Shown here: piece after piece, positions 16,028 to 62,660 of the stretch
Position numbering within the stretch: the first letter of the stretch is position 1
Layout of the letters: every line of letters begins with the position of its first letter
Assembly: GCA_951406725.2 (NCBI GenBank)
Contig: OX597828.1
Span: 77,190,001 to 77,254,000, forward strand
Length of the DNA stretch: 64,000 bases
Source: Octopus vulgaris
Taxonomy: Eukaryota
Direction of reading: 5' to 3'
Program-made: the position numbers and the translations under genes
Notes under the pieces: model-generated
Database searches by the model: none
What the model saw: only the letters and a program-made list of their open reading frames with translations
Told to the model about the DNA's origin: nothing

Positions 16028-16205
16028 AGGCGGCGATCTGGCAGAATCGTTAGCGCGCCGGACGAAAATGCTTGGCCGCATTTCATCCATCATTACGTTC
16101 TGAGTTCAAACACCGCTGAGGTCGACTTTGCCTTATATCCCTTTGGGGCCAATAAAACAAGTAGCAGTAGAGCACTGAGGTGGCCTTGTGCCAAAATTTG
16201 AGTCA
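16028..16205 (+). mobile_element. tRNA-derived SINE family A
   Basis: 'ggcggcgatctggcagaatcgttagc..ctgagttcaaa..gaggtcgactttgcctt...ggccttgtgcc'. Homologous copies at 22525, 22743, 51990, 55600, 58397 and 63745. Confidence 0.8.
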
Positions 16206-16231
16206 TTAGCTGTTATTTTGAAATATTAGCT

Positions 16232-16390
16232 GAAGTGGCTGTGTGGTAAGTAGCTTGCTTACCAACCACATGGTTCCGGGTTCAGTCCCACTATGTGGCA
16301 CCTTGGGCAAGTGTCTTCTACTATAGCCTCGGGCCGAACAAAGCCTTGTGAGTGGATTTGGTAGACGGAAACTGAAAGAAGCCCGTTGTA

Positions 16391-16443
<53 letters not shown>

Positions 16444-16630
16444 TTGTCTACCTGTTTTTGTCCTCCCAATATCGCTTGACAACTGATGCTGGTGTGTTTA
16501 CGTCCCCGTAACTTAGCGGTTCGGCAAAAGAGACCGATAGAATAAGTCCTAGGCTTACAAAGAATAAATCCTGGGGTCGATTTGCTCGACTAAAGGCGGT
16601 GATCCAGCATGGTCACAGTCAAATGACTGA
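16232..16630 (+). mobile_element. tRNA-derived SINE family B, near full length
   Basis: A-box-like 'tggctgtgtgg', B-box 'gggttcagtccc', CORE-like 'gcaccttgggcaagtgtctt', central (TA)(TG) run, tail 'cagtcaaatgactgaaacaagtaaa'. Confidence 0.88.
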
Positions 16631-17669
16631 AACAAGTAAACGATTAAAAGGTTGTATTGTTTTTGTGCGGAATACCTTTAACAAAACGTAAAGCCTATTT
16701 ATAATGGAGAAGAGTTTTGGTCGAAACTTATGTTTATGACATTTTTCTTGCGAAATAGTTTTGTTGTTTGGTTCGCCTGTCTTTTTTTAAAATACTGAAA
16801 TCGTTTATCGTCGAAATTATAATTTCAAACTCAAACAAAATTTCAATTCATGGACCGTATTCCATTGAAGATCATTGAAGACAAAACAGACGACGAGATG
16901 AGCGGTCATCGATATTATACTGAGGCAGAAATCAATCAACATATATATATCAATAAACACAACCAAGTAGAAACAACATGTGAGTGCGCATGGAACTCAC
17001 TATCGGACGATCGCGGTTTCGATTCCCAGACTGGTCGGTGCATTGTGTTCTTAAACAAAACACTTCATTTCACGTTACTTTAGTCCACTCATCTGAAAAT
17101 TAACGGCGCCTCGTTAATGGGAGAGTGTTGTCTTCTCAGATGAAGTGTTGCCATAGGAACCGGGTTAAGCCCCGGTTTATGTATCTTACGGCCCAAAACC
17201 GACCTAATCTAAGAAGCAACAGGTTTCTGTTAACAATGAGACAACATTGAAATGAATAGTTCGTTGCATAGAAGTTCGGTGTCAAGTTATGGCCACGAAT
17301 GCAGCCGAAGAAATCAAAGAGAAAGAGGAACAGCTTCCTGCTCTTGCTTCATTCATCTTTGGTCAATTTTGTTAGCTTGACACCAGGCTTTGGTCTCTGG
17401 ACTGCATTTGATGGCTGAGTTACAACAGAAAATATAATAAAGAAACCCTTCGGTATTGCACCTAGAAAGTTCCCCTCCGAGACAAGGCTGTTTATGGAAG
17501 ACCAGCAGTTGGCCATGCATACCAGCCTCGCTTCCCCATGCCACCGATGTTGTCCAAGGCCTGACGACACTCTTACCACTAAACCATTCATATTCAATGT
17601 TACATTTATCACATAGAAGCAACAACCACCAGGTGAGATTCTTACCTGACAACGAGGGTCTCCATTTAC

Positions 17670-18040
17670 ACTATCACCACCACCACCACGATCACCACCA
17701 CTGACATCACCAGCATCAACACTATCAGAATCGACAATACCAGCACCAGAAACAGCATCAGCGCCCTCACCATCACAACCACCACTACCATCCCCACCAC
17801 CACCACCATCATGACCGCCACCATCACCACCTGTACTACCACCATTACCAGCATCGCCAACAATATCAGTGCCACCATCACCGAAATCACTATCGACACC
17901 ATCACCCACCACCACCATAAACGCCACTATCATCACCACCATCACCAACATCACCATCACTGCTACCATCACCACCATTAATGCAATTTCCCACCATCTA
18001 CACCGCCACCGTTTCTCGATATCTCCACCGCCATCGCCAC
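17670..18040. repeat. (CAC/CAT)n degenerate trinucleotide tract
   Basis: Direct inspection. Confidence 0.85.
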
Positions 18041-21000
18041 ATATCTTTGCATATGACAAACATTAAAAGACATTCTATTCTACTTTATTCTTTCCTATTC
18101 TTCTATTCTTGTACATTCCAAATAAAAATCTACAAAACAGCAAAGAAATCATTTCTGGTCTTTGTCACGAAATGAAGCCGATCAATTAGTCAACATGAAA
18201 TCAAAGTGATCAATTAGTGATCAATAAATCAAAATTATCAAATTTTCTGTCAAAATCAAATTTTATGGTCTTACAATGTGTTGTACTTTCATCGGTGGAA
18301 ACAATTTTCAAAGGAAGAAACGAAGACAAATATCTGCGATCCCTGTAAAAACCTTGTGTGTGTGTGTGTGTGTTATACATATATATATCATACACATTAT
18401 ATAGATATATTAATATTTATATTTATATGCATATATATGTATATATATATGTGTGTGTGTGTGTGTATGTGTGTGTGTGGACATATGTGCACATATATAT
18501 GAACATATATATGCATAAGCACATATACATGCATAGCCATACATATATATATATATATATATATAAATATACACATATATATATGTGTTTGTGTGTGTGT
18601 GTATGTATCCAACATGTCTATATGTCTCTGTCTGTGTGTCTGTATATGTATATTTATACATATATATACATATGTGTGTGTTTATAGTTGTGTATGCATA
18701 TATATGCATATATATGCATATATACTCATACATGTATGTATAGGTATGTATGTATGTAAGTATGTATGTATGTATGTATGTATGTATGGGTGGGTAGGGC
18801 GGTGCGGGGAAAGAGAGTGAGAAGCAGGGAAAGACTGAGGAACGCTATACGAGATTTGTATTAGTGAGAAGTAGAGAGCTGTAAGCTCATGTACAAGATT
18901 GTAATATGAATATAAAATATATAAATATCTCATAAACCCATAAGATGTTTTAATGGCCCGTGCTTGGCTGCGGTTTTATGGCGTCGTTAAAAGGATGAGA
19001 GATAGATTTCTCCTCTGAGATCACACCAGTCTACCATAGTTAGACATTTCCAGATGACCTGCTGGCTACTGCAGACATATGGGAAATGGCCGTTTGTGGC
19101 GTGTCAGCCATTACAATAAACTTGTAATGTTTTAACGCCTGGTTTCTTGAGGTTGAGAAGAGCAACCGCTGTCGTGTTTGGACTGAGACCACCTTGTCCC
19201 TGTTTATTCAATCTCCAATTAAACAAGGGATTGATCAATGAAGTTGTCTCTATGTGCGACACTAGCTGATATAAAAAAACAACAACATCCAAACCGCTCT
19301 GAAACCACACCGTGCTTCCTTAAAGAATCCAAGCGTAATTGATATAATGTAACACTATAGGTGTGTAAACGATGAAGGATAACATAAAGCCAATAACGAT
19401 GAAGAACAGGTTTGCTTCTTCAGACCTGATCTCGGATTTAATACCGTCAACAACAAATAAACAAACGGATGTCACCCTGGAAGGTGGAGTGAGTACAGTA
19501 TGCCCCGACAGCAATGTTCATATCTGAATGTGCAGTACTAGGTAGGGCTCAATATGTTATATCGATAGATCGCTCGTAGACAATCGTCCTGTAACTTATG
19601 TCATTGGTCAGTTCAACAAGGACTTGTCTGATTTTATACATAACAACAGCAGCAACAGCAACAACAATGACAACAACGAATGATAATCATTACAAGATCC
19701 CAAAACTAACTGAATTCCTTATTGCTGACAATTTCCACTTTTGCACAATTAAAATTTGAAATATGTGGACCAGATATTTGTGGCTGAATTTCAGGGGCAG
19801 ACAGCTATGGAAGTTATACTTCTGAGGGTTTGAAATTCAAGAAAATACAAAATAGACAACCAGAATTAGAACCTTACAGGTCTTTTAAGGGTAGGGAGTC
19901 CAAGAAAACTAACGAATTACAGTGACTTATACCGGTAACTGATTGCTTTGAATAAGAAATAATTCTGTGATCTCTGGCGTATCACACTATTTGCACTAAA
20001 TTAATTACAATTCGTCTACAATTAACAGCAACCTAATACTTGAGTGAATTGTACATCAAAATACATTTTATGGCAGGTTGAGAGAATTGATTTCATTAAT
20101 GTAGCATTTATAAACAGGATGAACCCACACGAATGATAAATATTGACCTGCGAGAAAGTAGGGTCAGTTTTACACGATATACATGGAAATTCCCATAATT
20201 TTAATCAATTTGGCATCGAGTCGTATTCGAGTAAATATGATCGTTGGACTGATACGGTGAATAAGTAACAATGGTACTACAGAGAAAAATATATTGACTG
20301 GCTGTAGCTTATTTGAACGGAAAATGTGCGTAAAAAGTCCATTATTGTAATCCACTCGGTAAGGCCTCCTCCGCCGAGTCAGGAACGGATGGAAATGTGC
20401 AAGCGATTAAAACAAATGAGAAGGAATAAAGACTTGACTTCCGCTCCAGTTATCACTGCTTCTTCATGCAAAATCTAAAACTTTTAAAAGTCTAAGCCTG
20501 TTCCGCATTCGCATGTGGCATATATTTGTAAACCTTCAAATTCTTCTTTCTCTGTCGTTTGTCCCCCTCTATCTCTCACTCTCCCTTTCACTCTGTCACT
20601 CTCTCTCTCTCTTTTTCTCTCTTTGTCTCCCTCTTTATCGATCTATCTATCTAATACTCCCTCCCTTGCACTTAGGGACGATATAAATAGATATATAAAC
20701 ACACACACAGATATACATATGTATATGTACGTTATATAGAGGAAACTCAGACAATTTGTTTCTGTGTGGTCACAATTAAGCATCATTATTTGTCAAAACC
20801 TATATAAATATATACATAATTCATAAACATACAGACGCATAAATACATAAAATACACCTACATACCTGCATATTCATACACGTGCACATACAAACACGCG
20901 AAGGCGTAGATATTACACATATATACATGCATACATACATACATACATACACATACATACATACATACATGCATGCATACATACATACATACATACATAC

Positions 21001-21077
21001 ATACACACACATACACACATACATACATACATACATACATACATACATACATACATACATACATACATACATACATA

Positions 21078-21911
21078 CGAGGTCTGATGAGTAAGTATCC
21101 GTACTGTTGACATAGTACACAGAGTGAAGCCGCTTGGCAAAGATTGACCTGGAACTCTGATGTGCATGCGCACAAATTTTTAACGCTCTAGTTTACTGCC
21201 GCTGTTTACAGCAGTGCTTGGAAGGAAGGTGTGTAGCGTGTGATCATCGCATTGACCGTGACAGAGTAAGTTACCATGTTGATAACTGTTCAGAGGCCTG
21301 CGCAAAGTTGCAGAAAATGTATGGGAAGAAGCGTATGAGCCGCACGTTTCAAAGAAGTTGCCAAGATGGTCGAAAAAATGTCGATATTGACGAACGTTCT
21401 GTAAGAACCTGCAACCAGCAGAACTGAGGAAAAGATCGCAGATGTGCGTGCAGCTGAGAGGGGAAATCGTCGAATCACCATCCGAGAATTATCAGAGGAT
21501 GTGTAGATTAGTTACGGTTCAGTTCAGTCCATTATCACTTAAAATTTGGGTATGATTCGCGGTTCAGCCAAGTTTGTGCCAAAACTGCGTTCAGCAGACC
21601 AAAAAGACACCCGGATTTCAGTTACACAGGATCTCTTTGATTGTGTCGAGAACGATGAAAACTTTTTGAAAAGTTTGCGTAGGCCTCTGAGCACAAATCG
21701 CCAAGCTTTTGGCAAAATTTGAGCCAGATTTTCTGGTCAGCTTTCTTTGTCATGGTCAATGCGACGATCACACGCAACAAACCTTCCTTCTATAAAACTT
21801 AGTGCGCATGCACGGCAGAGTTCAGGGTCAATCTGCGCCAAGCGGCTTAACTCTGCGTGCTTTAACTTCGTTACTATGGCAACAGCCTGGGTACTTATGG
21901 ATCAGACAACG
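21078..21911 (+). mobile_element. Mariner-family non-autonomous derivative with TA target duplication and long inverted arms
   Basis: TA|cgaggtctgatgagtaagtatccgtactgttgacatagta versus the inverted right end ...ttactatggcaacagcctgggtacttatggatcagacaacg|TA. Internal transposase N-terminal remnant 'KLQKMYGK..MSRT..DGRKNVDIDERS..NRRITIREL..ISYGSVQSI..LGMIRGSAKFVPKL..DENFL'. Confidence 0.88.
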
Positions 21912-21944
21912 TACATAATACACGCACTCATCACACGTACATAT

Positions 21945-22008
<64 letters not shown>

Positions 22009-22086
22009 TTATATATATATACATATATATACATATATATATACATATACATTTATATATACACATATATATACATATATATATAC

Positions 22087-22117
<31 letters not shown>

Positions 22118-22524
22118 CATTTATATATATATACATTTATATATATATATTCACATGTATACATACGCATACTTATATACATACTTGTATATGTATACAA
22201 TTATGTATACGTATACATACGTATATACAAACACATACATACGGGAATTCACACATAGATGTATCCATAGGTGTAAACTGGTAATGTATACTGAACACTA
22301 AAGAGAGAAATGATTACATGAGAACATCATTTTTGTACATTATTACAACTCGTCAAAGTAATGAACTGGCACGTAAGTCCTCAGTTTGCCCACCTACTCT
22401 CATATAACTGAGAATTACCCATCCACGACTATCAAATGCTGCCCACTTACAACAGCGACTCGGAGGACAAATGCTCATGATACCAGCAGAACGTTACTTA
22501 CGTAGCTAGAGTGTATCATCAATA

Positions 22525-22720
22525 TTCTTTTCTAATCTAGGCACAAGGCCCAACATTTTGGGAGAGGGGATCAATCGACTAGCATTTAATTTATCGACCT
22601 CGAAAGGATGAAAGGCAAAGTTGACCACGGTGGAATTTGAACTCAGAACGTAAAGGCAGACGAAATACCACTGAGTATTTCGCCCGGCTTGCTAACGACT
22701 CTGCTAGATCGCTGCCTTGA
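22525..22720 (-). mobile_element. SINE family A
   Basis: 'ggcacaaggcc..atcgacctcgaaaggatgaaaggcaaagttgacc..atttgaactcagaacgtaa..gctaacgactctgctagatcgctgcc' is the reverse complement of the family A body. Confidence 0.82.
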
Positions 22721-22742
22721 GAATACTATCAATAGTGACAAG

Positions 22743-22960
22743 GCGAGTAAGGCATTCTGGTAGAATCGCTAGCACACAGGACAAAATGCCTGGCTGAATT
22801 TCACTTGTTTTACGTTCCGTGTTCAAATTCCTCCGTGACCGACTTTGCTTTTCTTTCGGTTTCGATTAAATGAGTACCAATTAAACACTGAGGTCGATTT
22901 AATCAATTAGCACCCCCAGCAGCAGCATTGCCGGCCTTGTGCTTATTGTAGAAAGTAATA
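22743..22960 (+). mobile_element. SINE family A (head-to-head with the preceding copy)
   Basis: 'ctggtagaatcgctagc..ttacgttccgtgttcaaattcc..gactttgc..gagtacca..ggccttgtgc'. Confidence 0.75.
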
Positions 22961-23519
22961 TTAACAGGAGGGGTAACCTCTCAGGGCCTATGATAGGTAT
23001 ATGACATCTGAGACGGTTACGGTTTCCGAATTTAGAAACAGGTGACGGCTGTCAATATACCTAGTATTGAAGCTTACATGTTGTAATAGAAAACATCGAT
23101 TGGGTCGTACAAGTGTGGAAGATGTCATCCACTGCACAAATATGTGGCAAGGTACCGACAAGGTCCTGGCAAGATACCGGCAGACATGATAGTGGCACGG
23201 TACCAGCTTTGTATGAAACACAAAAAAGTATTTATAACGTTATTTGAAGAAACGATTATCCTGACGAACATGCAGACGCATATCCGAATCAATCAGAATA
23301 TGTCCACATCTTTAAAAGTAACGACTGTTTATAATATAACGTTCAAATAAAAGTAGTGCTACGTTTCCAACACAAGAGATAGTGTTCCATTGGGCCAGAG
23401 AACAAATGTTATACACTGTTGTAGAAATCAGCTGCTCAAGGAAGATGAACATTATGTCTAAATTTAGAGAAAACAAAACTTTTATGGAGTAATAACATCT
23501 CTTTCTTAGTATCAGACTG

Positions 23520-23988
<469 letters not shown>

Positions 23989-24211
23989 TGTATAGATCAG
24001 ATTGTATATAAATGTTAAATGCCCTGATGAATAGTGTACCCTTCAATTATCTCTTCGCACGGGGGGGAGTATCGGAAAAGGCCTGCTGAATCCCCAATCT
24101 TCCGAGTTCTTTTACAGGGCTTAGAAAAATTGAAGGACCGCTGCAATAAGTGTGTGAATCTGAGATGGGAATATGCGGAATAAAATCATATTTAACTGAT
24201 CGTTAATATAC

Positions 24212-24254
<43 letters not shown>

Positions 24255-24643
24255 TGTGTGTGTGTGTGCGTGTGTGTGTGCGTGTACGTATGAATGAAAC
24301 ACCGTCTGTATTCTTATTCTTCTGCTCGTGGGCATTTGTAAAAACAAACAGACGTAATGATTTAACCTTTGTATTGTTAGAAATTGGCATAAACCAATAA
24401 GTAATCACTTCCGGTGATTGCATGGAATAAAAATGTGGTTTCTGGAACGTATACTTCCTCTATATACATTAGCTACCGGTCTGTAAAAGGTGGTGGCTCC
24501 ACCCGAGTTCGAACTCTGACAAATCTGTTGCAATGATTTCATTTGTCCACAGTTTATTATTGATATATTTACTGGTCTCCCTCCCTTCAAAAATATAACC
24601 ATCTGCTTTTATATGCCTCTCTTCCTCTCTCAATACATATACA

Positions 24644-24692
<49 letters not shown>

Positions 24693-25404
24693 TGGCAATA
24701 ATCCACAGATCCACTCTACAAAGTGCATCAGAATTAGTTTTAACATGACATTTTAACCATTTTGCTCTGTAAATGTCCATATAAATTATGAATTATTTGC
24801 ATCTCTGACATTAACACCATACAATAAGAGATCGTTGAGGTACATTCAAATACATAATAGAAACGAAATATGCGAGATCTTATTTCTTAACATTTAATCT
24901 ACTAAAGTAATTTTCTGTTTCGAGAACTGTTTTTCTCATCAGACAGTGTGAAAACAACATAGAATCTCTCTGTGGTCAAGAATATGTAGTCATTATGTAC
25001 TTCTAGCATTTGCTATGACCTACTGTACTTACTGTAGTTTTATATTTTCTTGGATGAAGGTATATTTCGGGGTAAAGACACGTCCAAGATCTATATTGGA
25101 TCATAATACTCAGTAACAACAGACGTTCGTACTCCACAGAGTATAATCGCAGTTAGTTTTAGCCAGTTATTTTCATTAGATGTTCAACATATTTTCATAT
25201 TCTTTCTCATGTATTTTGTGATATAATATTAAATCTATACTGAGAAAGATTAAAACGAAAGAGTTTACATCTGAAACATCAAGTGAAGAAAAGATTCATG
25301 ATTTCCCCTCAGACCAACTGTTCTCCATATACATGTACATGCATATATATAAATATATATATATATATAATGTATATGTATATCAATATGTATGTATGCT
25401 TGTA

Positions 25405-25471
<67 letters not shown>

Positions 25472-25632
25472 ATATGTATGTATGCCTGTATATGTGTGTG
25501 TCTATATATATATATACACGCACACACAAACACATGTCTGTGTGCATGTATATAAGGATGTGTGTGAATATATATATATATATATATATGCGTGGATATA
25601 TATATGTACACACACGGGCACACATACATATC

Positions 25633-25667
<35 letters not shown>

Positions 25668-25689
25668 ATGTGTATATATATGTGTGTGT

Positions 25690-26260
25690 GTTCCTACAAT
25701 TCCCCCCGTCGTGCGCTACACTTAAATGAGAGTGTTTCAATGTCATGTGCAATTAAACACCATTATGGGTATAAATTTTTGTATATATGACAATTTCTGC
25801 ACATGTATTACTACATCAATAAAAATTCCGTTAAAGCTAGCTACAGCTCTATGGGTAATAGACTATCACAAATCTCTAACTGCGACCAAAAATCGATAAA
25901 CTCCGTATAAACAACCTATATTGAATGCAATTGTAAGATGAGTTACCTTCTGGATATAAAATGCATATCAAATGTATTGATATATACAGAGTACACGTAG
26001 AATCCGTACACGCCACTGTAAAGATGTATATTGGGTTAACCGACAATACTTTTAAAACGTACAGTATTTATTCGAGCTTAAATGTATGGGCAAAGTTACA
26101 TCATTTTCAAAACTCATATGGTTTAAAGCACAGAATTAAGCACGCTTCTAAAATAAAATGAAGTGTTTCCAATTCACAGGTTTACAACTCATCTGGTGGC
26201 TCCTGTAACCTATCGGTAAATTCAAGGCGCTGAACCAACACAGAGATTATTTGAATTAGA
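25690..26260 (+). pseudogene. Decayed Penelope-like element C-terminus with GIY-YIG endonuclease
   Basis: Fragments in order: 'NSVKASYSSMGN' (cf. NTVKLSYSCMPN), 'ECNCK..LDIKC', 'KMYIGLTDNTFKT' (cf. YIGLTENTFKxR), 'YNSSGGSCNL' (cf. YNNGSKRCNLC). Confidence 0.65.
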
Positions 26261-26279
26261 AAGAATATTTTCCTCTTTA

Positions 26280-26570
26280 GGTGTGGTTCTGTGGTAAGAA
26301 TCCCACCATATGGCTCGGGTTCAATGTTCCTGCGTGACACCTTGGACATGAGACTTCTACTTTAGCTCCAGATAGGATCGAAACCGTGTGACTCGATTTA
26401 GTAAGCAGAAACTACGTAGGAGTATATACATATAATGCGCGTTCTCTTGTGCTTGTATTTGTCCTTCAAAGCCGTCTAACAAGCGGTGCTGGTTTGTTTA
26501 CACCTCCGTAACTTAGCGATTATGCAAAAGACGTCGATGGAAAAGTACCTTAAGTAAGTCATGGGTCGCA
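26280..26570 (+). mobile_element. SINE family B, degraded
   Basis: 'gtgtggttctgtggtaag..gggttcaatg..gtgacaccttggacatgagacttctact..gtttacacctccgtaacttagcg'. Confidence 0.7.
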
Positions 26571-27179
26571 AGTCTGCGATTAGTGACATAAAGCACTGGT
26601 TTAGTGACTGTAATTATACAGTCATTTTGCACTGACTATTTTATATTTTATTTGTTATATACAATGTATAAATGCGGGCGTGAATAAATTCGATAACTTA
26701 GATTGGTTTCGGCCATTATCGACCCAGGCAATGACTAACTCAATAGCCCCACCTAGAAAAGTCTTTTAGTTAATTATTTCGGGACAGCATGGACCACTCA
26801 AGCAGAGAGATGTTGCTGGCTTAGACGTATCCAGGTGAAGGGTAATTTATTCGGTATTTCCTGGAGGAATTTGTCCAGGTACCGTTTGAAAGTTGTTGGG
26901 CCTTTTCCTACTTTAATTTCTTTCGGAATAACATTGAAAAGAACAGCACCATTTGCAATGAAGAAATTGTGTCACAATGTTCTTATGTGATGTGATCTCG
27001 ACCTTTGTAGTGCACGCATTGTCTTGGGTGATTTGAAGGGGGCCTAGTCTTGGGTGAATTGTAAACATAATACCGATATCATTTGGATAATACTAGTGAA
27101 ATATTTTCCACCTGGTGCAAATAATATATCGGTCACGGCGGCGTTTCATGTATGTATACATATATATGTATATATATAC

Positions 27180-27238
<59 letters not shown>

Positions 27239-27244
27239 AATGTG

Positions 27245-27280
<36 letters not shown>

Positions 27281-27301
27281 CATATATACATACATACATA
27301 C

Positions 27302-27338
<37 letters not shown>

Positions 27339-27345
<7 letters not shown>

Positions 27346-27540
27346 TAAATTAGAGATAAAACCACTATTAGGCAAATCAAACAGTGAAAAACATAAGCCA
27401 ATACATAAAATTAATTTTAAAATATAAAAGTTAAAAATAAAAAATTATTTAAATAATTTAAACTTATAAATTTTATATATATATTTACAAATATATATAT
27501 ATATGTATATTTTTATATTTATATATTATTTTATTTATTA

Positions 27541-27571
<31 letters not shown>

Positions 27572-27813
27572 AATATTAAATATCAAAAGTATAAAAATTT
27601 AATAAAAGATAAATAAAATAATATATAAATATAAAAATGTACGTACATACATATATATATATATTTGTATATATATATAAAATTTATAAGTTTAAATTAT
27701 TTAAATAATTTTTTATTTTTAACTTTTATATTTTAAATTAATTTCATGTATTGGCTTATGTTTTTCACTGTTTGATTTGCCTAATAGTGGTTTTATCTCT
27801 AATTTAATATAAT
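27339..27813. repeat. AT-rich fold-back: ~200-bp inverted arms with ~70-nt spacer
   Basis: 27339-27537 (..taaattagagataaaaccactattaggcaaatcaaacagtgaaaaacataagccaatac..) is the near-perfect reverse complement of 27610-27813. Confidence 0.92.
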
Positions 27814-27911
27814 ATAATATAATATATTTATACTATAAAATTGGATTTAATCCTAAATCTAATTATTCCCTGTAAGTTTGGAGTTATTCCTAATATTATT
27901 ATTATTATTAT

Positions 27912-27971
<60 letters not shown>

Positions 27972-27974
<3 letters not shown>

Positions 27975-28309
27975 GTCTTGTTTGTGTCACATTTTTTTCT
28001 TTCCTTGTTTTTACCCCTCAGCTAAGTAATTTTATTTAATTATTTCGCAGGAAGGGCTAGTTCGACGAGTCGTGTTCTGTCCTCACCTTCGAAACACGCT
28101 GGAGTTGAACTAGGGGCAGCTGATGAAGGGGATTTTCCTTGTGTAGTTTGTCTTGTACTCTGTTTTTTCGTTGTTAAAAAAAGGTCCGTTCCATGCTTGT
28201 TTTTACGATTTCGTTTCTCGTTGAGTTCTACGTCTATTTGTGGTGTCCTGTACTCACGTATATATATTTATATATGCATGTATATATACATATAGATGTA
28301 GGTGCGTAC

Positions 28310-28342
<33 letters not shown>

Positions 28343-29305
28343 TGTATGTATGTATGTATGTATGTATGTATGTATGTATGCATATATCTTATTTATTACA
28401 CTATTGTATGACTGAGCGCCCTCGCGTCGATTCGATTCGATTCGTTTCGTTTCGTTTCGTTTTTTCTTCTTCAAGTACAGTTTTTATATATAATTATGAC
28501 GCGAAACTCCATAACTCTTTGCTTGACCTTCCCTTCTTTCCCTATCTCTCTCTCTCTCTCTCACTCCTCCTCATCTCTCTCACAGCCGCTTGTCTTCCAC
28601 TATCTCTCTCCCTCTCTCACTCCTCCTCATCTCTCTCACAGCCGGCTGACTACTTCCTTTCGCCTGCGGCCTCCTAACTGTAAAAACACGGTTTTTCTTG
28701 CGCTCTTTGAATCTCTCCTCATCTAGGCCAAAAAAGGCTCTCTTTGTTTGTTTTCTTGTTTGTTTTTATTTCTTGTATTGTATTTTTTGTAATTGTATTT
28801 TTATTTTGTATTTTATTTTGTATTTTATTTTGTAATTTTATTTGTATCGTTTTTACGTCTTGTTTGTGTCACCTTTTTTTCTTTCCTTGTTTTTACCCCT
28901 CTGCGAAGTAATTTTATTTAATTATTTCGCAGGAAGGGCTAGTTCGACGAGTCGTGTTCTGTCCTCACCTTCGAAACACGCTGGAGTTGAACTAGGTACA
29001 GCTGATGAAGGGGATTTTTCCTTGTGTAGTTTGTCTTGTACTCTGTTTTTTCGTTGTTAAAAAAGGTCCGTTCCATGCTTGTCTTTACGTTTTCGTTTCT
29101 CGTTAAGTTCTACGTTTATTTGTGGTGTCCTGTACTCACGTATATATATTTATATATGCATGTATATATACATGTAGATGTAGGTACGTACATATATGTA
29201 TGTATGCATATATGTTATTTATTACTCTATTGTATGACTGAGCACCCTCGCGTCGATTCGATTCGTTTCGTTTCGTTTCGTTTCTTCTTCTCCAAGTCAG
29301 TTTAT
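27972..29305. repeat. ~1.5-copy tandem of an 882-bp non-coding unit (direct repeats 27972-28490 and 28854-29305)
   Basis: Both copies start 'tacgtcttgtttgtgtcac' and share 'ggaagggctagttcgacgagtcgtg..cttcgaaacacgctggagttgaactagg..cagctgatgaagggg..ctcgcgtcgattcgattcg'. Confidence 0.9.
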
Positions 29306-29319
29306 ATATATATATATAC

Positions 29320-29366
<47 letters not shown>

Positions 29367-29430
29367 TAAGAAAGTTTGTTTGGTAAAGCACGTGGGTGAA
29401 TATATAAGAAAATAGTAAAGTGTTTATGTT

Positions 29431-29465
<35 letters not shown>

Positions 29466-29469
<4 letters not shown>

Positions 29470-32042
29470 CTTGTGACGTTATGTTTATATTGCATGGAAT
29501 ATCGTTGTTTTTATTTCCAGGGGATTTCTAAATAAGGGGAGGTAGTGAGTGATTTTTTCCGGTGTAGGGGAGATAATCGCTTAAAAATTTTTTTTTTTTT
29601 TCCTTTTTCCTTGTTAATTTCTCTGTGTCAGTATGTTCGGATGGTTGAGTCTGGGTTTGTACTTTTCAATGAAGAATGTTTCCTTGTTCAGTCTCATTTG
29701 TGTTGATGATCCGAAAGCACATTGGTAAAATGGGAAGATTAAAAATTGTGGCAGTAGTTGCTTTGCGCATTTCTCAATGTGCTCACTAAAAGGTATCATT
29801 TTATATTCTGGGAATGCAATCTGTTGTCGATGCAGTGTGCATCTGCGCCTGAGTGATAGTCCCGTGGAACCCACGTAATCTTGGTGGCAGCCCGAGCATT
29901 TAATAACATAAATTATGTTTTCAGAGGCACAAGTAAAGTTAGATTTGATCTTAAATTTCTGTCCCTCTTTAAAGAAGAATTCTGATCCTTCCAATAGGTT
30001 AGGACATGTTGCACAGTTCGATCTACCACATTTTTTTACTTTTGCATCCGTAATTTTAGAAGACAATTTTGCCTTTGTGAGAATCTTTTTAAGTGATTTA
30101 GGCTGTTTGTAGCTTTTAATGATTTGGTGTATGTTTAGAATTTCCTTTAATTTTGGGTTTTTATGAAGTATTGGTAAATTCTGGGTGATGATGGTGAAGG
30201 CTTCTTTGTTTCTGGGGTTGTATGTAGATATGTAAGGTAGTATTTTCGGGGAAGGTGTGTTGTTGTGTTGAACTTTTCTTAAAGTTTCTATGTTGATTTC
30301 TGTTGCACGTCTGATCCCATCCTCTATGAGTTGAGCTGGGTAATGTCTGTCAATTAGGGTGTTTTTGAGTTCTTGCAGTCTAAAGTTCCTGGTATTTTGT
30401 TCTGACACTATTGTGCATATCCTTCTTGCAAGGTTGAAGGGGATGTTTGTTTTAGTGTGTCTTGGGTGGCATGAATTAAAAGAAGGTATTGTTTGGCGTC
30501 TGTGGCTTTGTAAAAAATGTCTGTTTCCATTTTAAGGTTAATTTTTTTAATTAGTATATCCAAGAACGGGAGCTCCTTTTGGTTGTATTCCATTGTGAAC
30601 TGTATATTTGGGTTTATGCTGTTCAATAGGTTTTTAAATTTTAGGAGTTTATCTATGTTTTCATTCCAGAGAATGAAACAATCGTCTAGGAATCGTTTCC
30701 AATTCTCTTTTATGTATTGAGAGAGGGAGTTTCCAAAGATTGATAGAGATTCCTGGTAAATGATTATTTCCATGTATCCCATTGTTAAGTTCGCAATGAC
30801 TGGTGCTGCCCTTGTACCCATAGCAATTCCGGATTTTTGACGGTAAAATGTATTGTCAAACATGAAGTGGTTATTGTGTAGGATGAATTCAACTGATTTA
30901 GTAATGAATTCCTTACTGATCCTTTTTGGTATTTCTTCCGGAAATTGGTCTAACCAGAATTGTATTGCCTCCAGTCCATAATTATGAGGTATACTGGTAT
31001 ACAAGATGACTACATCAAATGAAACCAGGATCGTTTCTTCCTTGGTTTTTTTTGGAAGGTGGTTTAACATATCTAAGTCATCTCTGATATGGCTATCGAT
31101 ATGTTTAAGGAAGGGTTTCAAGAGGATGTCCATAAGTAGACTTAGTCTGTGTGTTTCACAGGTTGGGCCAGCTACAATGGGTTGTAGTTTTAGGTCCCCC
31201 GGATTAGGTGTGTGTATGTATGTATGTCTTTGGTGATTTTTTAATGGTTTCATTTATAATTTGACTTTTATGAATTTTTGGCAGACCATAGAAAAGGCTA
31301 GGTTTGCATTTAAAGTTTGTTAGGAAATCAATCTCTTTGGTTGTCAGTTCCTTTTCATGGGTTTTAATTAGTGAAGATAGAGTTTTCATTATTTTTTGTG
31401 GGGTGTAGTTGGTAATTTTTTCATAATGTAGGTCTTCATCAAGCAAGGAAATTACAAGATTTCTGTAGTATGATGTATCCATTATTACAACTGCATTTCC
31501 CTTGTCCGCTTCCTTAATGGTTATATCTTCATCATTTTTGAGTTCTATCAGTTCTTTCCATTGTGTAGTGTTAAAATTTGGGTTAGCTTTCTGTTTATGT
31601 ATAGTATGGTAGGGGAAGTTCTCAATGTGGTTACAGAATTCGTCAAGATCTTTATTTCTTCCTCTGTGTGGGATGTGTTCACTTTTGTTCTTGACTAGTG
31701 ATTCATCTTCAGTATTGAAACTGTTTGATGCTTCTGCTAGTCTTAATTTTCTGCAAAATTCTGTTATATTATCCTTGAGTTCATTTAGGTTTGCTCTGCG
31801 TGGAGTTGGTGTAAATTTGAGCCCTTTTGCGAGGATGTCAATTTTTATGTTAGAAAGAGGTTTGGTTGAAAGATTGATTATCTTCGGTTTTTCCTTATTA
31901 CTAGGTTCCAGCCTGTGTCCTGGTGTCCCTGGTCCCTGGCTAAAAAATGTTGGGTGTAATTTTGTTTGTATGAGTTGTCTGTGAGGTTGTGTGGTATTTG
32001 GTCGGGGGAGTGGTGGTATTGTTGCCTCCGATCGTTGTGTGT
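29466..32042 (-). mobile_element. Penelope-like element (Neptune type), inverted copy (left arm of palindrome), two frameshifts
   Basis: Reverse complement of ~32260-34787. ORF pieces 31204..31482, 30408..31253 and 29614..30408 are nearly identical to the plus copy. Confidence 0.95.
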
Positions 32043-32766
32043 AAATCTAACTTTACTTGTGCATCTGAAAACATAATTTATGTTATTAAATGCTCGGGCT
32101 GCCACCAAGACTACGTGGGTTCCACGGGACTATCACTCAGGCGCAGATGCACACTGCATCGACAACAGATTGCATTCCCAGAATATAGAATGATACCTTT
32201 TAGTGAGCACATTGAGAAATGCGCAAAGCAACTACTGCCACAATTTTTAAACCTCACATACAACCTCACAGACAACTCATACAAACAAAATTACACCCAA
32301 CATTTTTTAGCCAGGGACCAGGGACACCAGGACACAGGCTGGAACCTAGTAATAAGGAAAAACCGAAGATAATCAATCTTTCAACCAAACCTCTTTCTAA
32401 CATAAAAATTGACATCCTCGCAAAAGGGCTCAAATTTACACCAACTCCACGCAGAGCAAACCTAAATGAACTCAAGGATAATATAACAGAATTTTGCAGA
32501 AAATTAAGACTAGCAGAAGCATCAAACAGTTTCAATACTGAAGATGAATCACTAGTCAAGAACAAAAGTGAACACATCCCACACAGAGGAAGAAATAAAG
32601 ATCTTGACGAATTCTGTAACCACATTGAGAACTTCCCTACCATACTATACATAAACAGAAAGCTAACCCAAATTTTAACACTACACAATGGAAAGAACTG
32701 ATAGAACTCAAAAATGATGAAGATATAACCATTAAGGAAGCGGACAAGGGAAATGCAGTTGTAATA

Positions 32767-34632
32767 ATGGATACATCATACTACAGAAATCTTGTAATTT
32801 CCTTGCTTGATGAAGACCTACATTATGAAAAAATTACCAACTACACCCCACAAAAAATAATGAAAACTCTATCTTCACTAATTAAAACCCATGAAAAGGA
32901 ACTGACAACCAAAGAGATTGATTTCCTAACAAACTTTAAATGCAAACCTAGCCTTTTCTATGGTCTGCCAAAAATTCATAAAAGTCAAATTATAAATGAA
33001 ACCATTAAAAAATCACCAAAGACATACATACACACACCTAATCCGGGGGACCTAAAACTACGACCCATTGTAGCTGGCCCAACCTGTGAAACACACAGAC
33101 TAAGTCTACTTATGGACATCCTCTTGAAATCCTTCCTTAAACATATCGATAGCCATATCAGAGATGACTTAGATATGTTAAACCACCTTCCAAAAAAAAC
33201 CAAGGAAGAAACGATCCTGGTTTCATTTGATGTAGTCAACTTGTATACCAGTATACCTCATAATTATGGACTGGAGGCAATACAATTCTGGTTAGACCAA
33301 TTTCCGGAAGAAATACCAAAAAGGATCAGTAAGGAATTCATTACTAAATCAGTTGAATTCATCCTACACAATAACCACTTCATGTTTGACAATACATTTT
33401 ACCGTCAAAAATCCGGAATTGCTATGGGTACAAGGGCAGCACCAGTCATTGCGAACTTAACAATGGGATACATGGAAATAATCATTTACCAGGAATCTCT
33501 ATCAATCTTTGGAAACTCCCTCTCTCAATACATAAAAGAGAATTGGAAACGATTCCTAGACGATTGTTTCATTCTCTGGAATGAAAACATAGATAAACTC
33601 CTAAAATTTAAAAACCTATTGAACAGCATAAACCCAAATATACAGTTCACAATGGAATACAACCAAAAGGAGCTCCCGTTCTTGGATATACTAATTAAAA
33701 AAATTAACCTTAAAATAGAAACAGACATTTTTTACAAAGCCACAGACGCCAAACAATACCTTCTTTTTAATTCATGCCACCCAAGACACACTAAAACAAA
33801 CATCCCCTTCAACCTTGCAAGAAGGATATGCACAATAGTGTCAGAACAAAATACCAGGAACTTTAGACTGCAAGAACTCAAAAACACCCTAATTGACAGA
33901 CATTACCCAGCTCAACTCATAGAGGATGGGATCAGACGTGCAACAGAAATCAACATAGAAACTTTAAGAAAAGTTCAACACAACAACACACCTTCCCCGA
34001 AAATACTACCTTACATATCTACATACAACCCCAGAAACAAAGAAGCCTTCACCATCATCACCCAGAATTTACCAATACTTCATAAAAACCCAAAATTAAA
34101 GGAAATTCTAAACATACACCAAATCATTAAAAGCTACAAACAGCCTAAATCACTTAAAAAGATTCTCACAAAGGCAAAATTGTCTTCTAAAATTACGGAT
34201 GCAAAAGTAAAAAAATGTGGTAGATCGAACTGTGCAACATGTCCTAACCTATTGGAAGGATCAGAATTCTTCTTTAAAGAGGGACAGAAATTTAAGATCA
34301 AATCTAACTTTACTTGTGCCTCTGAAAACATAATTTATGTTATTAAATGCTCGGGCTGCCACCAAGACTACGTGGGTTCCACGGGACTATCACTCAGGCG
34401 CAGATGCACACTGCATCGACAACAGATTGCATTCCCAGAATATAGAATGATACCTTTTAGTGAGCACATTGAGAAATGCGCAAAGCAACTACTGCCACAA
34501 TTTTTAATCTTCCCATTTTACCAATGTGCTTTCGGATCATCAACACAAATGAGACTGAACAAGGAAACATTCTTCATTGAAAAGTACAAACCCAGACTCA
34601 ACCATCCGAACATACTGACACAGAGAAATTAA
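32767..34632 (+). CDS. Penelope-like reverse transcriptase / GIY-YIG endonuclease (621 aa open portion; frame extends upstream through the DKG motif and, across a 1-nt homopolymer frameshift at ~32635, to ~32260)
   Basis: 'IKEADKGNAVVIMD', 'FYGLPKIHK', 'LRPIVAG', 'LVSFDVVNLYTSIP', 'GIAMGT', 'RFLDD', 'LPFLDI', 'SCHP', Cys motif 'KCGRSNCATC' (typical of the Neptune clade), and 'IIYVIKC..DYVGSTG..LRRRCTLH..E..FI..P.LN'. Confidence 0.95.
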   Translation: MDTSYYRNLVISLLDEDLHYEKITNYTPQKIMKTLSSLIKTHEKELTTKEIDFLTNFKCKPSLFYGLPKIHKSQIINETIKKSPKTYIHTPNPGDLKLRPIVAGPTCETHRLSLLMDILLKSFLKHIDSHIRDDLDMLNHLPKKTKEETILVSFDVVNLYTSIPHNYGLEAIQFWLDQFPEEIPKRISKEFITKSVEFILHNNHFMFDNTFYRQKSGIAMGTRAAPVIANLTMGYMEIIIYQESLSIFGNSLSQYIKENWKRFLDDCFILWNENIDKLLKFKNLLNSINPNIQFTMEYNQKELPFLDILIKKINLKIETDIFYKATDAKQYLLFNSCHPRHTKTNIPFNLARRICTIVSEQNTRNFRLQELKNTLIDRHYPAQLIEDGIRRATEINIETLRKVQHNNTPSPKILPYISTYNPRNKEAFTIITQNLPILHKNPKLKEILNIHQIIKSYKQPKSLKKILTKAKLSSKITDAKVKKCGRSNCATCPNLLEGSEFFFKEGQKFKIKSNFTCASENIIYVIKCSGCHQDYVGSTGLSLRRRCTLHRQQIAFPEYRMIPFSEHIEKCAKQLLPQFLIFPFYQCAFGSSTQMRLNKETFFIEKYKPRLNHPNILTQRN

Positions 34633-34780
34633 CAAGGAAAAGGGAAAAAAAAAAAAAAAAAAAAAATTTAAGCGATTATCTCCCCTACACCGGAAAAAAT
34701 CACTCACTACCTCCCCTTATTTAGAAATCTCCTGGAAATAAAAACAACGATAATTCCATGCAATATAAACATAACGTCAC

Positions 34781-34820
34781 AAGAAATTTGAAAAGCTACA
34801 CGCGAAACCGGTAATTTCTT
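34781..34820 (+). ncRNA. Minimal type I hammerhead ribozyme, U3-A8 core variant
   Basis: AAGAAAU | UUGAAAA | GC-uacac-GC | GAA ACCGGU A | AUUUCUU. Perfect 7-bp stem I, palindromic stem III, GUA triplet, ~150 nt downstream of the PLE stop codon. Confidence 0.72.
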
Positions 34821-35519
34821 TAAAAATTTTAAAATTATGTCATTTTAAGGAAAGGGAAAAAAATTTTTCCAATATTCTCCAGACATTTTGACACAAATAT
34901 ATATATTTTTTAACATTTAAGCCTTCTGTCGTTTTTTCACACTTTACTATTTTCTTATATATATATATATATATACATATATATATGTATGTATGTATGT
35001 ATGTATATATATATATATATATGTATGTATATATATATGTGTGTGTACATGTATGTATACATATATATATACAAATGTGTGTGTGTGTGCGTGTGTACAT
35101 ATGTGTGTGTATAAATATATTAGTGTGTGTTGATAGGCTGGCTTATAATTGCATTAGTTGTATTCAACATCCGAAAAATCAGACGTGATTTTTTATGCGT
35201 TTATGAAACTTGAAGGAATGCACTTCTAAGTCAAGTTGTTAATATTTGTATTCGACGTGGTGAATGTTCATTACTTTCGATGTAGATGGAGCGAGGGGTG
35301 AGGAAGAGTAAGGACAGAACAGAAGGTAGGAGAGAAAAAGAGAAGGAAAGGCTGAAAGAGAGAAAGGATGAAAGAATGACCGAATGAGGCAATGAAAGAG
35401 AGGAGGAAAGGGTAAAAGGAAGTAATGAAAAATAAGACAAGTGGTATGGAGTAAAAAGAACGATAAAAAGAAGGAACAATCAAAAGTCAAAGATAAAAAT
35501 GAAAGAAAACTAACGGGGG

Positions 35520-57087: not shown

Positions 57088-58047
57088 GAAAACAACAAAA
57101 GTTATAAAACAAATGAAATCCAAACTAAAAATAGAACAGCAACGAACCATGATAAAACGATGGCAAGAAAAGCCCCTTTATGGTAAATACTGGACTAAAC
57201 TAAACGCAAAAGAAATAGACAAAGAAATAGACAAAATCCCAGCAATGGTTGAGAAGCTCAGGACTCAAAGCAAAAACAGAGGGATTTTTAATTGCAGCAC
57301 AAGACCAAAGCCTCCCCACCAGAAATTACCAAAAACATGTAATGAAAAGAAATATAACAAGTAACTGCAGAATATGTGGAGATGGACAAGAAACAATAAA
57401 TCATATTATCTCTGGCTGCCCAGTCCTGGCTAAGAAGGAATATATTCACAGACATGACAAAGTTGGAACCTACATACACTGGAAGCTATGCCAACATTAT
57501 GGAATAACAACAGAAAAAAGATGGTATAGGCACACACCAGAAAAGGTCACAGAAAACGAGAAAGCAACCATACTCTGGGATATGCCGATACACACAGATA
57601 GAGAAATTAAGGCCAACAGACCAGATATAGTTGTCAGAGATCATGAAGAAAAAAAAAAGCTTTCTAATTGATGTATCAATACCGGCAGATGACAACGTGT
57701 CTCTAAAAGAAATGGAGAAACTCTCAAAATACAAAGACCTAGAAATAAAGATAACCAGAATGTGGAATCTGAAAACAGAAACAATTCCTATCATAGTAGG
57801 TGCATTAGGCATGATAAAAAAATATTCAGACAAATACATAACAAAAAAACCAGGACTTACAAACACATATAACATACAGAAAATTGCACTACTAGGCACT
57901 GCACACATCCTACGCAGAACACTTTCCATACAATAACCATCAGAGCATCACAACAAATCACACAGAAACTGAAAGAAGCCCGTCGTATATATGCACACAG
58001 AGCTGCGCTCGGTAGTGAAGTGAAAGCATGCTATAAAAATAAAACTA

Positions 58048-58136: not shown

Positions 58137-58138
<2 letters not shown>

Positions 58139-58249
58139 TGATGCATGTGCCTGGTGTACCCTTATCAGACGGGTAGTCATGATGGGTATACTGGGCTTCG
58201 TATATTTTACCCCAGTGTCACTTTGATGGCATGCTCTGCTCGCTCACTC

Positions 58250-58251
<2 letters not shown>
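58137..58251 (+). mobile_element. 3' fragment of a TAA-tailed non-coding repeat (inverted relative to 58767-58879)
   Basis: Near reverse complement of 58767-58879; flanked by (TAA)n. Confidence 0.75.
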
Positions 58252-58314
<63 letters not shown>

Positions 58315-58345
58315 TAATAACAACAACAACAACAACAACAACAAC

Positions 58346-58396
<51 letters not shown>

Positions 58397-58615
58397 TCTT
58401 TCTACTATAGGCAGAAGGTCTGAAATTTGGGGGAAGGGGACCAGTCGATTAGATCGACCCCAATACTCAACTGGTACTTCATTTATTGATCCTGAAAGGA
58501 TGAAAGGCAAGGCAAAGTCGACCTTGGCGGAATTTGAACTCAGAACGTAGTTGCAGACGAAATAGCGCTAAGCATTTCGCCCGGCGTGCTAACGACTTTC
58601 CCAGCTCGCTGCCTG
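58397..58615 (-). mobile_element. SINE family A
   Basis: 'tctactataggcagaagg..ctggtactt..gaaaggatgaaaggcaa..gtcgaccttggcggaatttgaactcagaacg..ccggcgtgctaacga..ccagctcgctgcc'. Confidence 0.85.
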
Positions 58616-58683
58616 CATAGTAGTAGTAGTAGTAGTAGTAGTAATATATTCAGCCCAGTCAAATCGAATGATATTTTTTATTA

Positions 58684-58756
<73 letters not shown>

Positions 58757-58766
58757 CATTATTATT

Positions 58767-59250
58767 GAGTGAGAGAGCAGTTCATGCCATCAAAGTGACA
58801 CTGGGGTAAAATATACGAAGCCCAATATACCCATCATGACTACCCGTCTGATAAAGGTACACCAGGCACATGCATCACAACCATATGTGCGCGACATGGT
58901 GATCTCATATCAAGATAAACAGCACATGACCTCGCAGGTGGGGCCCAGTTAGAATTTTCTTCAGGTTGAGTAGCCCATCCCGCTCAAAAGATCCTTGAAT
59001 AAGGGTTGTTTAAGGATGTTGAAAAAACCACCCATTTTTCCAGAGGTGAATTATTCAAACCCCAAAGAATCCCCCCAACACATGGCCATGATGCTCCCCC
59101 ACTACTTCTGCTCGTGATCAGAGATGTACATATCGTCAGCCACTAAGGGACATGCTCAACTGGTTAAGGTCAAACAACTGACAAGCAAATCTGTGGTATT
59201 GAGCAGAATATTTGCTGTAGCCCATCTTTTATACCAAGACAAAACAATGT
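58767..59250 (-). mobile_element. ~480-bp non-coding repeat inserted in (TAA)n, no tRNA head
   Basis: TAA arrays on both sides; its 3' 115 bp are repeated at 58137-58251. Confidence 0.65.
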
Positions 59251-61455: not shown

Positions 61456-61550
61456 TGCGTTCCTGATGAAATGAAACATTTAGAATTTGGAACTTTTAAA
61501 CAACAAAACGCCAAAGAAAATCAAGTAATATTTTCAGGCAAATCAGTTTC

Positions 61551-61733
61551 TTACATTATTTACGTTATTTACATTATTTACATTCGACGGATATTTGTCT
61601 TCATCTTGTTGGTTGTTAACACAACCTTTCGGCTGATATACCTTCCAGCCATGGGTATATGGCGTAGTGGTTAAGAGCGCGGACTACTAACACCAAGATT
61701 ACGAGTTCGATTCCAGGCAATAATAATAATAAC

Positions 61734-61774
<41 letters not shown>

Positions 61775-61955
61775 CATCGAAAAATACCTTAGAAATGAGA
61801 ACCCGGGTTCGAAATTTCCCCAAGACACCTCATGAAGGCTGGAAGGTATATCAGCCGAAACGTTTTGTTAACAACAAACAAGATGAGGACAAATATCCGT
61901 CGAATGTAAATAATGTAAATAATGTACATAATTCCTCATCTCTTAAACATAAAAC
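61551..61955 (+). mobile_element. tRNA-headed, hammerhead-containing SINE/retrozyme-like element (copy 2) with inverted terminal duplication
   Basis: A-box 61660-61670, B-box 61703-61714, (AAT)n, hammerhead at 61824-61869 (core mutated to CUCAUGA). 61551-61650 is the reverse complement of 61837-~61927. Confidence 0.82.
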
Positions 61956-62104
61956 CAGTTTCTTTACTTTTACTAACTCCAGGATTTTCTTTGTTTTCTT
62001 TGCTTGTGTTTTTTTTTTTGGTTATTTTTTATCTTGGTGGTGGAGATTTATTCTTTATCTAGGGACAGGCATGGCTTTATGGTAAGAAGTTAGCTTCCCA
62101 CCAC

Positions 62105-62660
62105 AGTCGCTACGATAAAGTGTATGTGTATCTTCATTGGCTCCTACGCTGTAAATACCAATATGAAGTAACAGAGAACTGGTATGAGCATGTACCAAGT
62201 AAAGTAAAGAGGATGGGAAAATAACGATACTCTGGGTCTATGATTTTCAGAAAGGACGTGTAATCGAATACCGTCGGCCGGGTGTTGTCATACTGAATAA
62301 GAGAGACAAATTCTGTCAGATAAGTGATTTAACCATGCCAAATGATATGAATGTTGTGAGTAAAGATGTTGAAAAAATCACCAAGTACTCCGAATTGAAA
62401 ATGGAAATGGCAAGATTGTGTGGAATGCGAGATCGTAATGTAAAAGTGTTACCAGTGATGGGACAGTTGGTCTCAATCCCATTGAAACTTCATGACTTCT
62501 TAAGGTAACTGGAAATCCCATGCAAGATTGATGTCTTGCAAAAAGCAACCTTACTGGGGGCAGCGAACATCTTAAGGAAAGTATTACCTGTCTGTGGTTC
62601 TTGTTGTGACTTGACAGATGACTAAAGACTCCGGTGCATTTTTACCTACACTGTATTACG
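62105..62660 (+). mobile_element. R4/Dong-like 3' fragment 3, followed by (GAA)n
   Basis: 'RYDKVYVYLHWLL..WYEHVP..ITILW..IEYRRPGVV..KITKYSELKME..LQKATLLGAANILRKVL'. Confidence 0.8.

Follow-up and report, generated by a model that had tools for sequence, protein, structure and literature searches.

The segment 61544-61964 of the window (the whole 64,000-nucleotide stretch of Octopus vulgaris DNA analysed here, with positions counted from its first letter) is best read as one aged insertion, with its arms head to head, of the pLTR and tail that form the terminal repeat of a Penelope/Poseidon-type element, now decayed, a reading to which we give a probability of about 0.8. The insertion is made of two arms of the same repeat in inverted orientation, with a tail on one arm only and a target-site duplication (TSD) around the pair; across the genome, paired arms share sequence variants and the repeat is contiguous with both ends of an ORF coding for a reverse transcriptase (RT) and a GIY-YIG-type C-terminus.

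Structure of the two-armed insertion

The features of the insertion, and the second copy of the repeat found in the window, are listed in Table 1.

Table 1 Features of the insertion and second pLTR copy (window coordinates, strand, description).
61544..61552, +, left TSD; 9 bp exact, 11-12 bp if one indel is allowed
61555..61650, -, inverted tail-less arm, pLTR body positions 62-157; outer edge +/-2 nt (61553-61554)
61649..61655, +, arm-to-arm junction; stem II CC meets what remains of the CCC-AC-GGG centre where the head starts, an apparent microhomology judged from the sequence; junction type recurs genome-wide
61653..61720, +, tRNA-like head within the pLTR of the PLE; boxes A (61660-61670) and B (61703-61714); cloverleaf not called
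61720..61775, +, (AAT)n/(AAC) linker; its length varies, and other elements often interrupt it
61776..61955, +, pLTR body and tail; similarity to the PLE ORF (first ~53 codons) begins at the ATG, 61795
61824..61869, +, hammerhead motif, minimal type I, stem II at 61837-61856; motif and helices matched by eye to the pattern of PMC4209133, broken in this copy
61933..61955, +, 3' tail region, on this arm only; family tail ~34 nt
61956..61964, +, right TSD, exact 9-bp repeat
23573..23988, -, second pLTR copy in the window; single, tail-less, with a (TA)n end

The arm at 61555-61650 is the reverse complement of 61837-61932, with 90 of 96 bases identical (E 3e-40). An earlier note on this DNA had described an inverted copy of the 3'-most ~90 nt at 61551-61650: the inversion is real; the copied part is not the 3'-most one, the tail being missing, and 61551-61552 belong to the TSD. 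Measured by alignment, the inverted arm falls ~23 nt short of the 3' end (61955), or ~32 nt if a 9-nt repeat is placed in its other register. Its inner end lies exactly at the GGCTGG of stem II (61837), as had been noted. The arm was also said to abut the tRNA-like head, and the two are indeed adjacent, with two bases intervening before the head start at 61653; these two bases fit the decayed centre of the CCC-AC-GGG hairpin, which implies CC microhomology at the junction. Both arms are enclosed by the 9-bp direct repeat (61544-61552 and 61956-61964).

The ribozyme core at 61829-61835 reads CTCATGA versus CTGATGA in the family majority, in agreement with the mutated core (CUCAUGA) reported earlier; the damage to the motif comprises the core change G to C at 61831 and a stem I change G to T at 61865. 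At 61544-61964 neither a hammerhead nor a tRNA was matched by Rfam, and ARAGORN called no tRNA (in one listing of these scans the best 150 of 365 rows were all microsatellite-driven), and folding of the head and ribozyme RNA gave no significant z-score.

Abundance of the repeat and pairing of its arms

The genome (2.8 Gb, 227 contigs) contains 2305 exact matches to a 32-nt motif of the repeat. The exact motif was present in 4/58 and 6/41 unselected arms, giving an estimate of ~16,000-33,000 arms with a wide interval. Three samples were analysed: motif-picked loci (90 loci covering the first 95 of 100 listed matches on contig C1, reduced to 88 after removal of two duplicates); 30 similarity-picked loci resembling the 61544-61964 copy; and 30 head-picked loci, a few of them shared with the first set.

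An inverted partner was found upstream in 55 of the 88 motif-picked loci (51% when weighted for double pick-up), in 22/30 similarity-picked and in 20/30 head-picked loci. The inverted arm, whose frequency the earlier note had proposed to count, is thus not peculiar to this locus, and the combination of inverted arm and one-arm tail is typical across genomic copies, bearing out the suggestion of a PLE integration footprint. Among the 55 pairs, 52 have a longer arm that terminates at body positions 179-182, and 53 have a shorter arm that terminates at 130-158; likewise, sequence reads pile up at two repeat ends 34 nt apart. These two ends correspond to the optional 30-40 nt tail of PLEs (PMC3846280, PMC8557442, PMC11167929).

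Direct tandem repeats of the unit occur in only a few of the 88 loci. One instance (L050/L051) shows the reverse of the usual layout, with full bodies placed tail to tail 142 nt apart. The AAT linker is often interrupted, by at least three other repeat families (L004, L015, L016, L017, L027, L037, L052, L069, L079, L105); such interruptions split the head from the body and would fragment annotation.

Two known classes were considered and set aside. A tRNA-SINE is disfavoured by the fixed non-repetitive 3' ends, the inverted pairs, the TSDs found mainly around pairs and the presence of the head in an ORF-bearing element; the poly(A)-tailed copies of a LINE-type process, named earlier as the opposing outcome, and single-armed insertions with a simple-repeat tail are not the pattern of the samples. 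A non-LTR retrozyme, which would have tandem units each with an intact type I hammerhead, is disfavoured by the rarity of direct repeats of the unit (a few of the 88 loci) and by the broken core of the present copy.

Target-site duplications and variants shared between arms

A flanking repeat of at least 8 nt was found in 43 of 68 pairs (tailed plus tail-less arm), versus 1.6% of 2000 mismatched flank pairs. The corresponding figure for single-armed copies was 2/41, in a rough test where many copies are interrupted or run on upstream. The 25/68 pairs without a TSD of 8 nt may be explained in part by decay (~4% per arm). Absence of TSDs had been put forward as a sign of PLE activity; the reverse was found, and such absence is not a valid test, since PLE inverted insertions are known with TSDs of 8-10 bp (PMC3846280).

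Paired arms agree with each other at body position 58 in 33 of 34 cases (P 5e-7) and at position 127 in 34 of 37 (P 8e-5), and non-CpG variants are common to both arms at twice the shuffled rate (P 0.002). Arms that share subfamily variants derive from one event and one template, unless conversion homogenised them. The agreement suggests that both cut strands primed on a single RNA; synthesis by fold-back, or gene conversion at a later time, could also produce it. Family-wide, position 58 marks a subfamily: the core reads CTGAAGA instead of CTGATGA in about one fifth of copies, solo and ORF-linked alike.

The repeat belongs to a Penelope/Poseidon-type element

The sequence between the arms of two loci (L081 and L107) matched a PLE protein. 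At the head side, 17 of 85 arms with an intact head start extend upstream into a common sequence coding for a GIY-YIG-type C-terminus, and the PLE stop codon lies 29 nt before the head in ORF-bearing copies. Loci collected with the ORF thumb region have the head and/or the body downstream in 26/30 cases, and in 11/30 loci collected with the ORF 5' region the body continues straight into the ORF. L190 contains a tandem junction and L206 is a near-complete ORF copy beginning at the head.

The majority sequence, to which the copies are 92% identical, has a 675-codon open frame that starts within the body and carries DKG and YVDD motifs; its protein is 29% identical to that of the other PLE of the window. 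A CCHH-type EN segment follows the frame (majority of decayed copies, with one frame break; the EN call is by motif and similarity). The ORF has 53 database relatives, most of them with RVT_1, and relatives P0001-P0014 are 65-69% identical; Pfam did not recognise four decayed ORF fragments of L181. No intact ORF copy was seen, the longest open frames being 569 codons among 150 hits and 632 in another search. The RT-EN linker has no CX2-5CxxC zinc finger (the other PLE of the window has CxxxxCxxC there), which under the criterion of PMC8557442 indicates Penelope/Poseidon; the sequence features point to this clade for the parent element.

The same variants occur in solo and in ORF-linked repeats, and at similar frequencies (body 58 A: 21/104 solo and 7/40 ORF-linked; body 127 G: 24/112 and 6/40), with divergences of 4.3% and 5.7%, and no separate SINE subfamily was found in this comparison. 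Given that head and body are contiguous with both ends of the ORF and that solo and ORF-linked copies share variants and age, the apparent SINE is the pLTR and tail of the PLE. The earlier idea of a separate SINE borrowing the enzyme of a partner is abandoned accordingly.

An independent tRNA SINE lineage that captured the 3' end of a PLE, with its own master copies and amplified by the PLE protein, is unlikely. It would account for the great excess of short copies (depth over the ORF 5' half is some hundred-fold lower than over the body), for the stopping of 33/47 head-reaching arms within 8 nt of the head start and for the resemblance of the head to genomic tRNAs. Against these points, the head belongs to an autonomous element at both ends, the solo and ORF-linked repeats are alike in variants and divergence, and the depth over the last 450 nt of the ORF is only ~4-10 times below that of the body, as ordinary 5' truncation predicts.

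Insertion mechanism and position of the break

The organisation of the pairs would be explained as follows. The PLE protein would nick both target strands ~8-15 nt apart; each 3' end would prime reverse transcription of one common RNA, starting at either of two internal sites that lie 34 nt from each other; both cDNAs would extend toward the RNA 5' end and join via 2-5 nt of microhomology, mostly at the head-start CCC-AC-GGG; and gap filling would generate the TSD. At 61544-61964 the tailed arm would have reached the head, the other arm joining at the stem II CC, one of several equivalent CC/GG sites. The RNA itself would start just before the head, from the A and B boxes, by polymerase III; this is the least certain step, for which the chances are about even. 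In vitro, both strands are cut and extended by a Poseidon protein whose predicted form is a dimer, and its two internal RT starts delimit the tail (PMC11167929). The formation of PLE inverted insertions has been described as undefined (PMC8557442).

Fold-back of one cDNA on the head hairpin or on a short match, followed by self-copying, with the asymmetry of the arms arising by slippage or by later deletion in the palindrome, is a possible though rather doubtful route. It accounts directly for the shared variants, perfect or near-perfect hairpin joints at the head occur in L020, L092 and L077, and self-priming at the junction palindrome has been proposed (PMC3846280). Clean joints, however, are mostly asymmetric, and the fuller arm may be the one with the tail or the one without it (head positions 1-5 are reached in 18 and 15 of 47 clean joints), and stopping 34 nt short needs an extra rule under fold-back, whereas two RT starts have been demonstrated in vitro (PMC11167929).

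The coincidence of the break with stem II had raised the question whether breakpoints cluster at the ribozyme stems. Stem II contained 8 of the 50 arm ends within body positions 9-130, where 9.8 were expected, and the ribozyme as a whole contained 16, where 18.9 were expected. Ends at body 59-65 were in excess (7/50 versus 2.9 expected, P 0.023), an excess swollen by the motif picking at body 69-100, which excludes ends of picked arms there and pushes ends just upstream; counted by hand, 7 of 39 ends at body 68 or below lie at 59-65, versus 4.6 expected.

Genome-wide, inverted-arm/head junctions numbered 117 with the break in body 46-75 and 85 in the ribozyme-free body 5-34, counts that are only roughly comparable given the different anchors of the two windows; the 46-75 pattern misses the 61544-61964 locus itself, which has a substitution in the anchor. 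A tally by eye of the 100 junctions listed (each count +/-~2) gave 20 at body 69-73, 16 at 66-68, 13 at 62-63 (the type of the present locus), 13 at 56-61, 17 at 53-55 and 21 at 45-52. The peaks of both windows are CC/GG runs that match the head-start CCC-AC-GGG.

These data do not favour clustering at stem II: ends follow CC/GG microhomology with the head, other CC/GG sites are used as often or more, the control window peaks alike, and stem II was rejected as a preferred break. That the ribozyme sets the breakpoint, either by stem II stalling or redirecting the RT or by ribozyme processing defining the inverted arm, is very improbable. The 13/100 listed junctions ending at the stem II edge and the 7/50 ends at body 59-65 speak for it; against it stand the use of the other sites of the same 30-nt window, the similar peaks of the ribozyme-free window, the 8/50 ends in stem II itself, a predicted cleavage site 27 nt off, and in vitro insertion unchanged by ribozyme mutants (PMC11167929). 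The position of the break next to the hammerhead is likely a matter of chance, stem II offering one of several microhomology sites.

The tRNA-like head and transcription by polymerase III

The A and B boxes of the head stand at tRNA spacing; among 35 tRNA sequences of few isotypes, the best alignment was to the genomic tRNA-Arg(TCT) (z 7.7). Of 145 arms, 53 terminate within the body, 23 within the linker or within a nested insertion, and the other 69 inside the head or upstream of it. Head position 8 is reached by 47 arms, of which 33 end no more than 8 nt from the head start (0.041 per nt versus 0.003-0.013 nearby) and 14 continue past the head into the ORF end. The sense strand contains no TTTT in 2641 nt (4.6 expected, P 0.006 by base shuffling; 2.6 expected, P 0.07 under a dinucleotide model; P 0.02-0.03 with codon shuffles of the 2010-nt frame). 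The single control is the other PLE of the window (8 TTTT versus 8.3 expected), because the hits of a search for a further Poseidon-type family belonged mostly to the family under study. RNA reads covered both strands equally, with no start or end peak at the repeat; they are uninformative on polymerase III, since intronic copies dominate and the libraries may be unstranded.

On these indirect sequence features, we give about even odds to the A and B boxes driving polymerase III, with the RNA starting just before the head. The 14 arms that continue past the head, the drop of only ~4-10 times in depth over the last 450 nt of the ORF and the lack of a cloverleaf weigh against it, as does the small hairpin at the head start, which could itself cause the pile-up of ends. 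The broader reading, in which a Penelope element captured a tRNA-derived promoter into its pLTR, polymerase III read the whole 2.6 kb, the solo repeats represent a SINE-like burst without a SINE and both target strands were primed, is tentative. PLE reverse transcription begins at a point internal to the RNA, immediately beyond the pLTR, and such transcripts would for that reason also yield the tens of thousands of solo repeats.

It is also conceivable, at somewhat less than an even chance, that the head is a passenger left by the old insertion of a tRNA or SINE that became fixed in the 3' UTR of an element read by polymerase II, the small hairpin causing the pile-up of ends. The lack of a cloverleaf, the uninformative RNA reads, the D. 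virilis Penelope internal promoter resembling LINE promoters (PMC2377424) and the tRNA-less palindromes known at pLTR 5' ends (PMC3846280) would fit a passenger, as would the 10/30 head-picked loci with no body within 1.5 kb downstream; several of these body-less heads, however, are paired with an inverted arm or have a linker interrupted by another element. A passenger is further opposed by the intact A and B boxes at tRNA spacing, by the absence of TTTT, by the near-complete ORF copy L206 beginning at the head and by the hairpin stem of merely 4-5 bp.

Other elements in the window and genome

The window contains a second PLE (29340-34970), very young and of another family, arranged head-to-head in (TA)n; 135/135 scored hits were 99-100% identical, and many copies have 811-codon open frames. 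The zinc finger in its linker makes it Neptune/Nematis-like. Its own ~34-nt tail is on the left arm, and the tail/no-tail arrangement was found in 7/8 loci with both ends visible. A minimal hammerhead with a U3-A8 core variant (PMC4209133) was recognised by eye in its pLTR (34782-34819), the fold being not significant. This 5.3-kb palindrome had been likened to the present insertion: the architecture is shared; the family is a different one, with no DNA similarity to the repeat. It was rejected as the partner, since neither head nor body was matched at the DNA level in 30 loci of its family, and is an analogue.

Further PLE-like families (e.g. C5:110721566, C20:37493467) have open frames of 900-1000 codons and are 29-30% identical to the query. 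Other elements of the window are a broken Helitron Rep/helicase coding region (6729-9724; Pfam Helitron_like_N, E 2e-11); a 205-nt inverted repeat of 94% (58137-58879), whose repeat family is also found at 16.0, 22.6 and 63.8 kb; and LINE fragments with a zf-RVT domain (57231-57947, after a long (AAT)n tract, and ~62180-62590), which, from their C-terminal motif, are putatively of the R2/R4-Dong type.

Comparison with known systems

The inverted pLTR, the tail, the TSD and the minimal hammerhead are already known for PLEs; the unusual part is the tRNA-like start signal within a Penelope terminal repeat. Among the papers searched there was none on a PLE with a tRNA-derived pLTR or on such an octopus repeat; Repbase, Dfam and octopus repeat libraries may contain the sequence. 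A 1994 octopus SINE paper, cited in PMC4758252, may already contain the repeat, and an octopus survey reports many unclassified SINEs and Penelope families, ribozymes being unmentioned in its available text (PMC13282606).

The closest systems are the EN+ PLEs of the Penelope/Poseidon type: Adineta Pen2a/Pen3a (PMC3846280), Anolis Poseidon PAc (PMC11167929) and D. virilis Penelope (PMC2377424). The octopus element is like them in its ORF (RT plus C-terminal GIY-YIG, with no zinc finger in the linker); in the hammerhead, here a motif matched by eye, and the ORF start within the pLTR; in the head-to-head inverted arm; and in the 30-40 nt one-arm tail, 8-10 bp TSD, solo pLTRs and short palindrome at the pLTR 5' end. 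It differs in that its pLTR opens with an A/B-box head and an AAT linker, unmentioned for those elements in the available parts of these papers, and in that its solo repeats number in the tens of thousands.

Other systems share single traits. Helenus, Ajax and Cassandra TRIMs (PMC10886601) have a small-RNA-derived polymerase III promoter inside a terminal repeat; they are, however, non-autonomous LTR elements with PBS/PPT and 4-5 bp TSDs, whereas the octopus element is a PLE with the head also in its ORF-bearing copies. Animal non-LTR retrozymes and non-autonomous PLEs such as MRC1 (10.64898/2026.07.22.740005; PMC8557442) are likewise non-coding, pLTR-related repeats moved by a PLE protein; the octopus unit differs from them in being rarely tandem (88 loci) and identical to the pLTR of its parent, not a separate family.

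The thousands of short two-armed copies, with one-arm tail, TSD and matching variants, constitute a natural test set for the model of two start sites. If true, a tRNA-type promoter in the repeat of an autonomous retrotransposon would blur the distinction between a SINE and its partner, and some annotation as "unclassified SINE" in such genomes would refer to PLE ends; one would also have to ask how translation proceeds from an RNA that has no cap. The schistosome Sm-alpha and Sj-alpha repeats (PMC2770079, PMC6765202) are likewise abundant short repeats; they have a tRNA-related polymerase III-type promoter followed by a hammerhead, to which the A/B-box head and the motif matched by eye would correspond here. 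Unlike the octopus repeat, which is the end of a protein-coding PLE and forms inverted pairs, they are described in the available texts as tandem, non-coding and SINE-like, with no identified ORF-bearing parent; a tRNA-headed PLE repeat offers a lead for the unexplained mobility of Sm-alpha in schistosomes.
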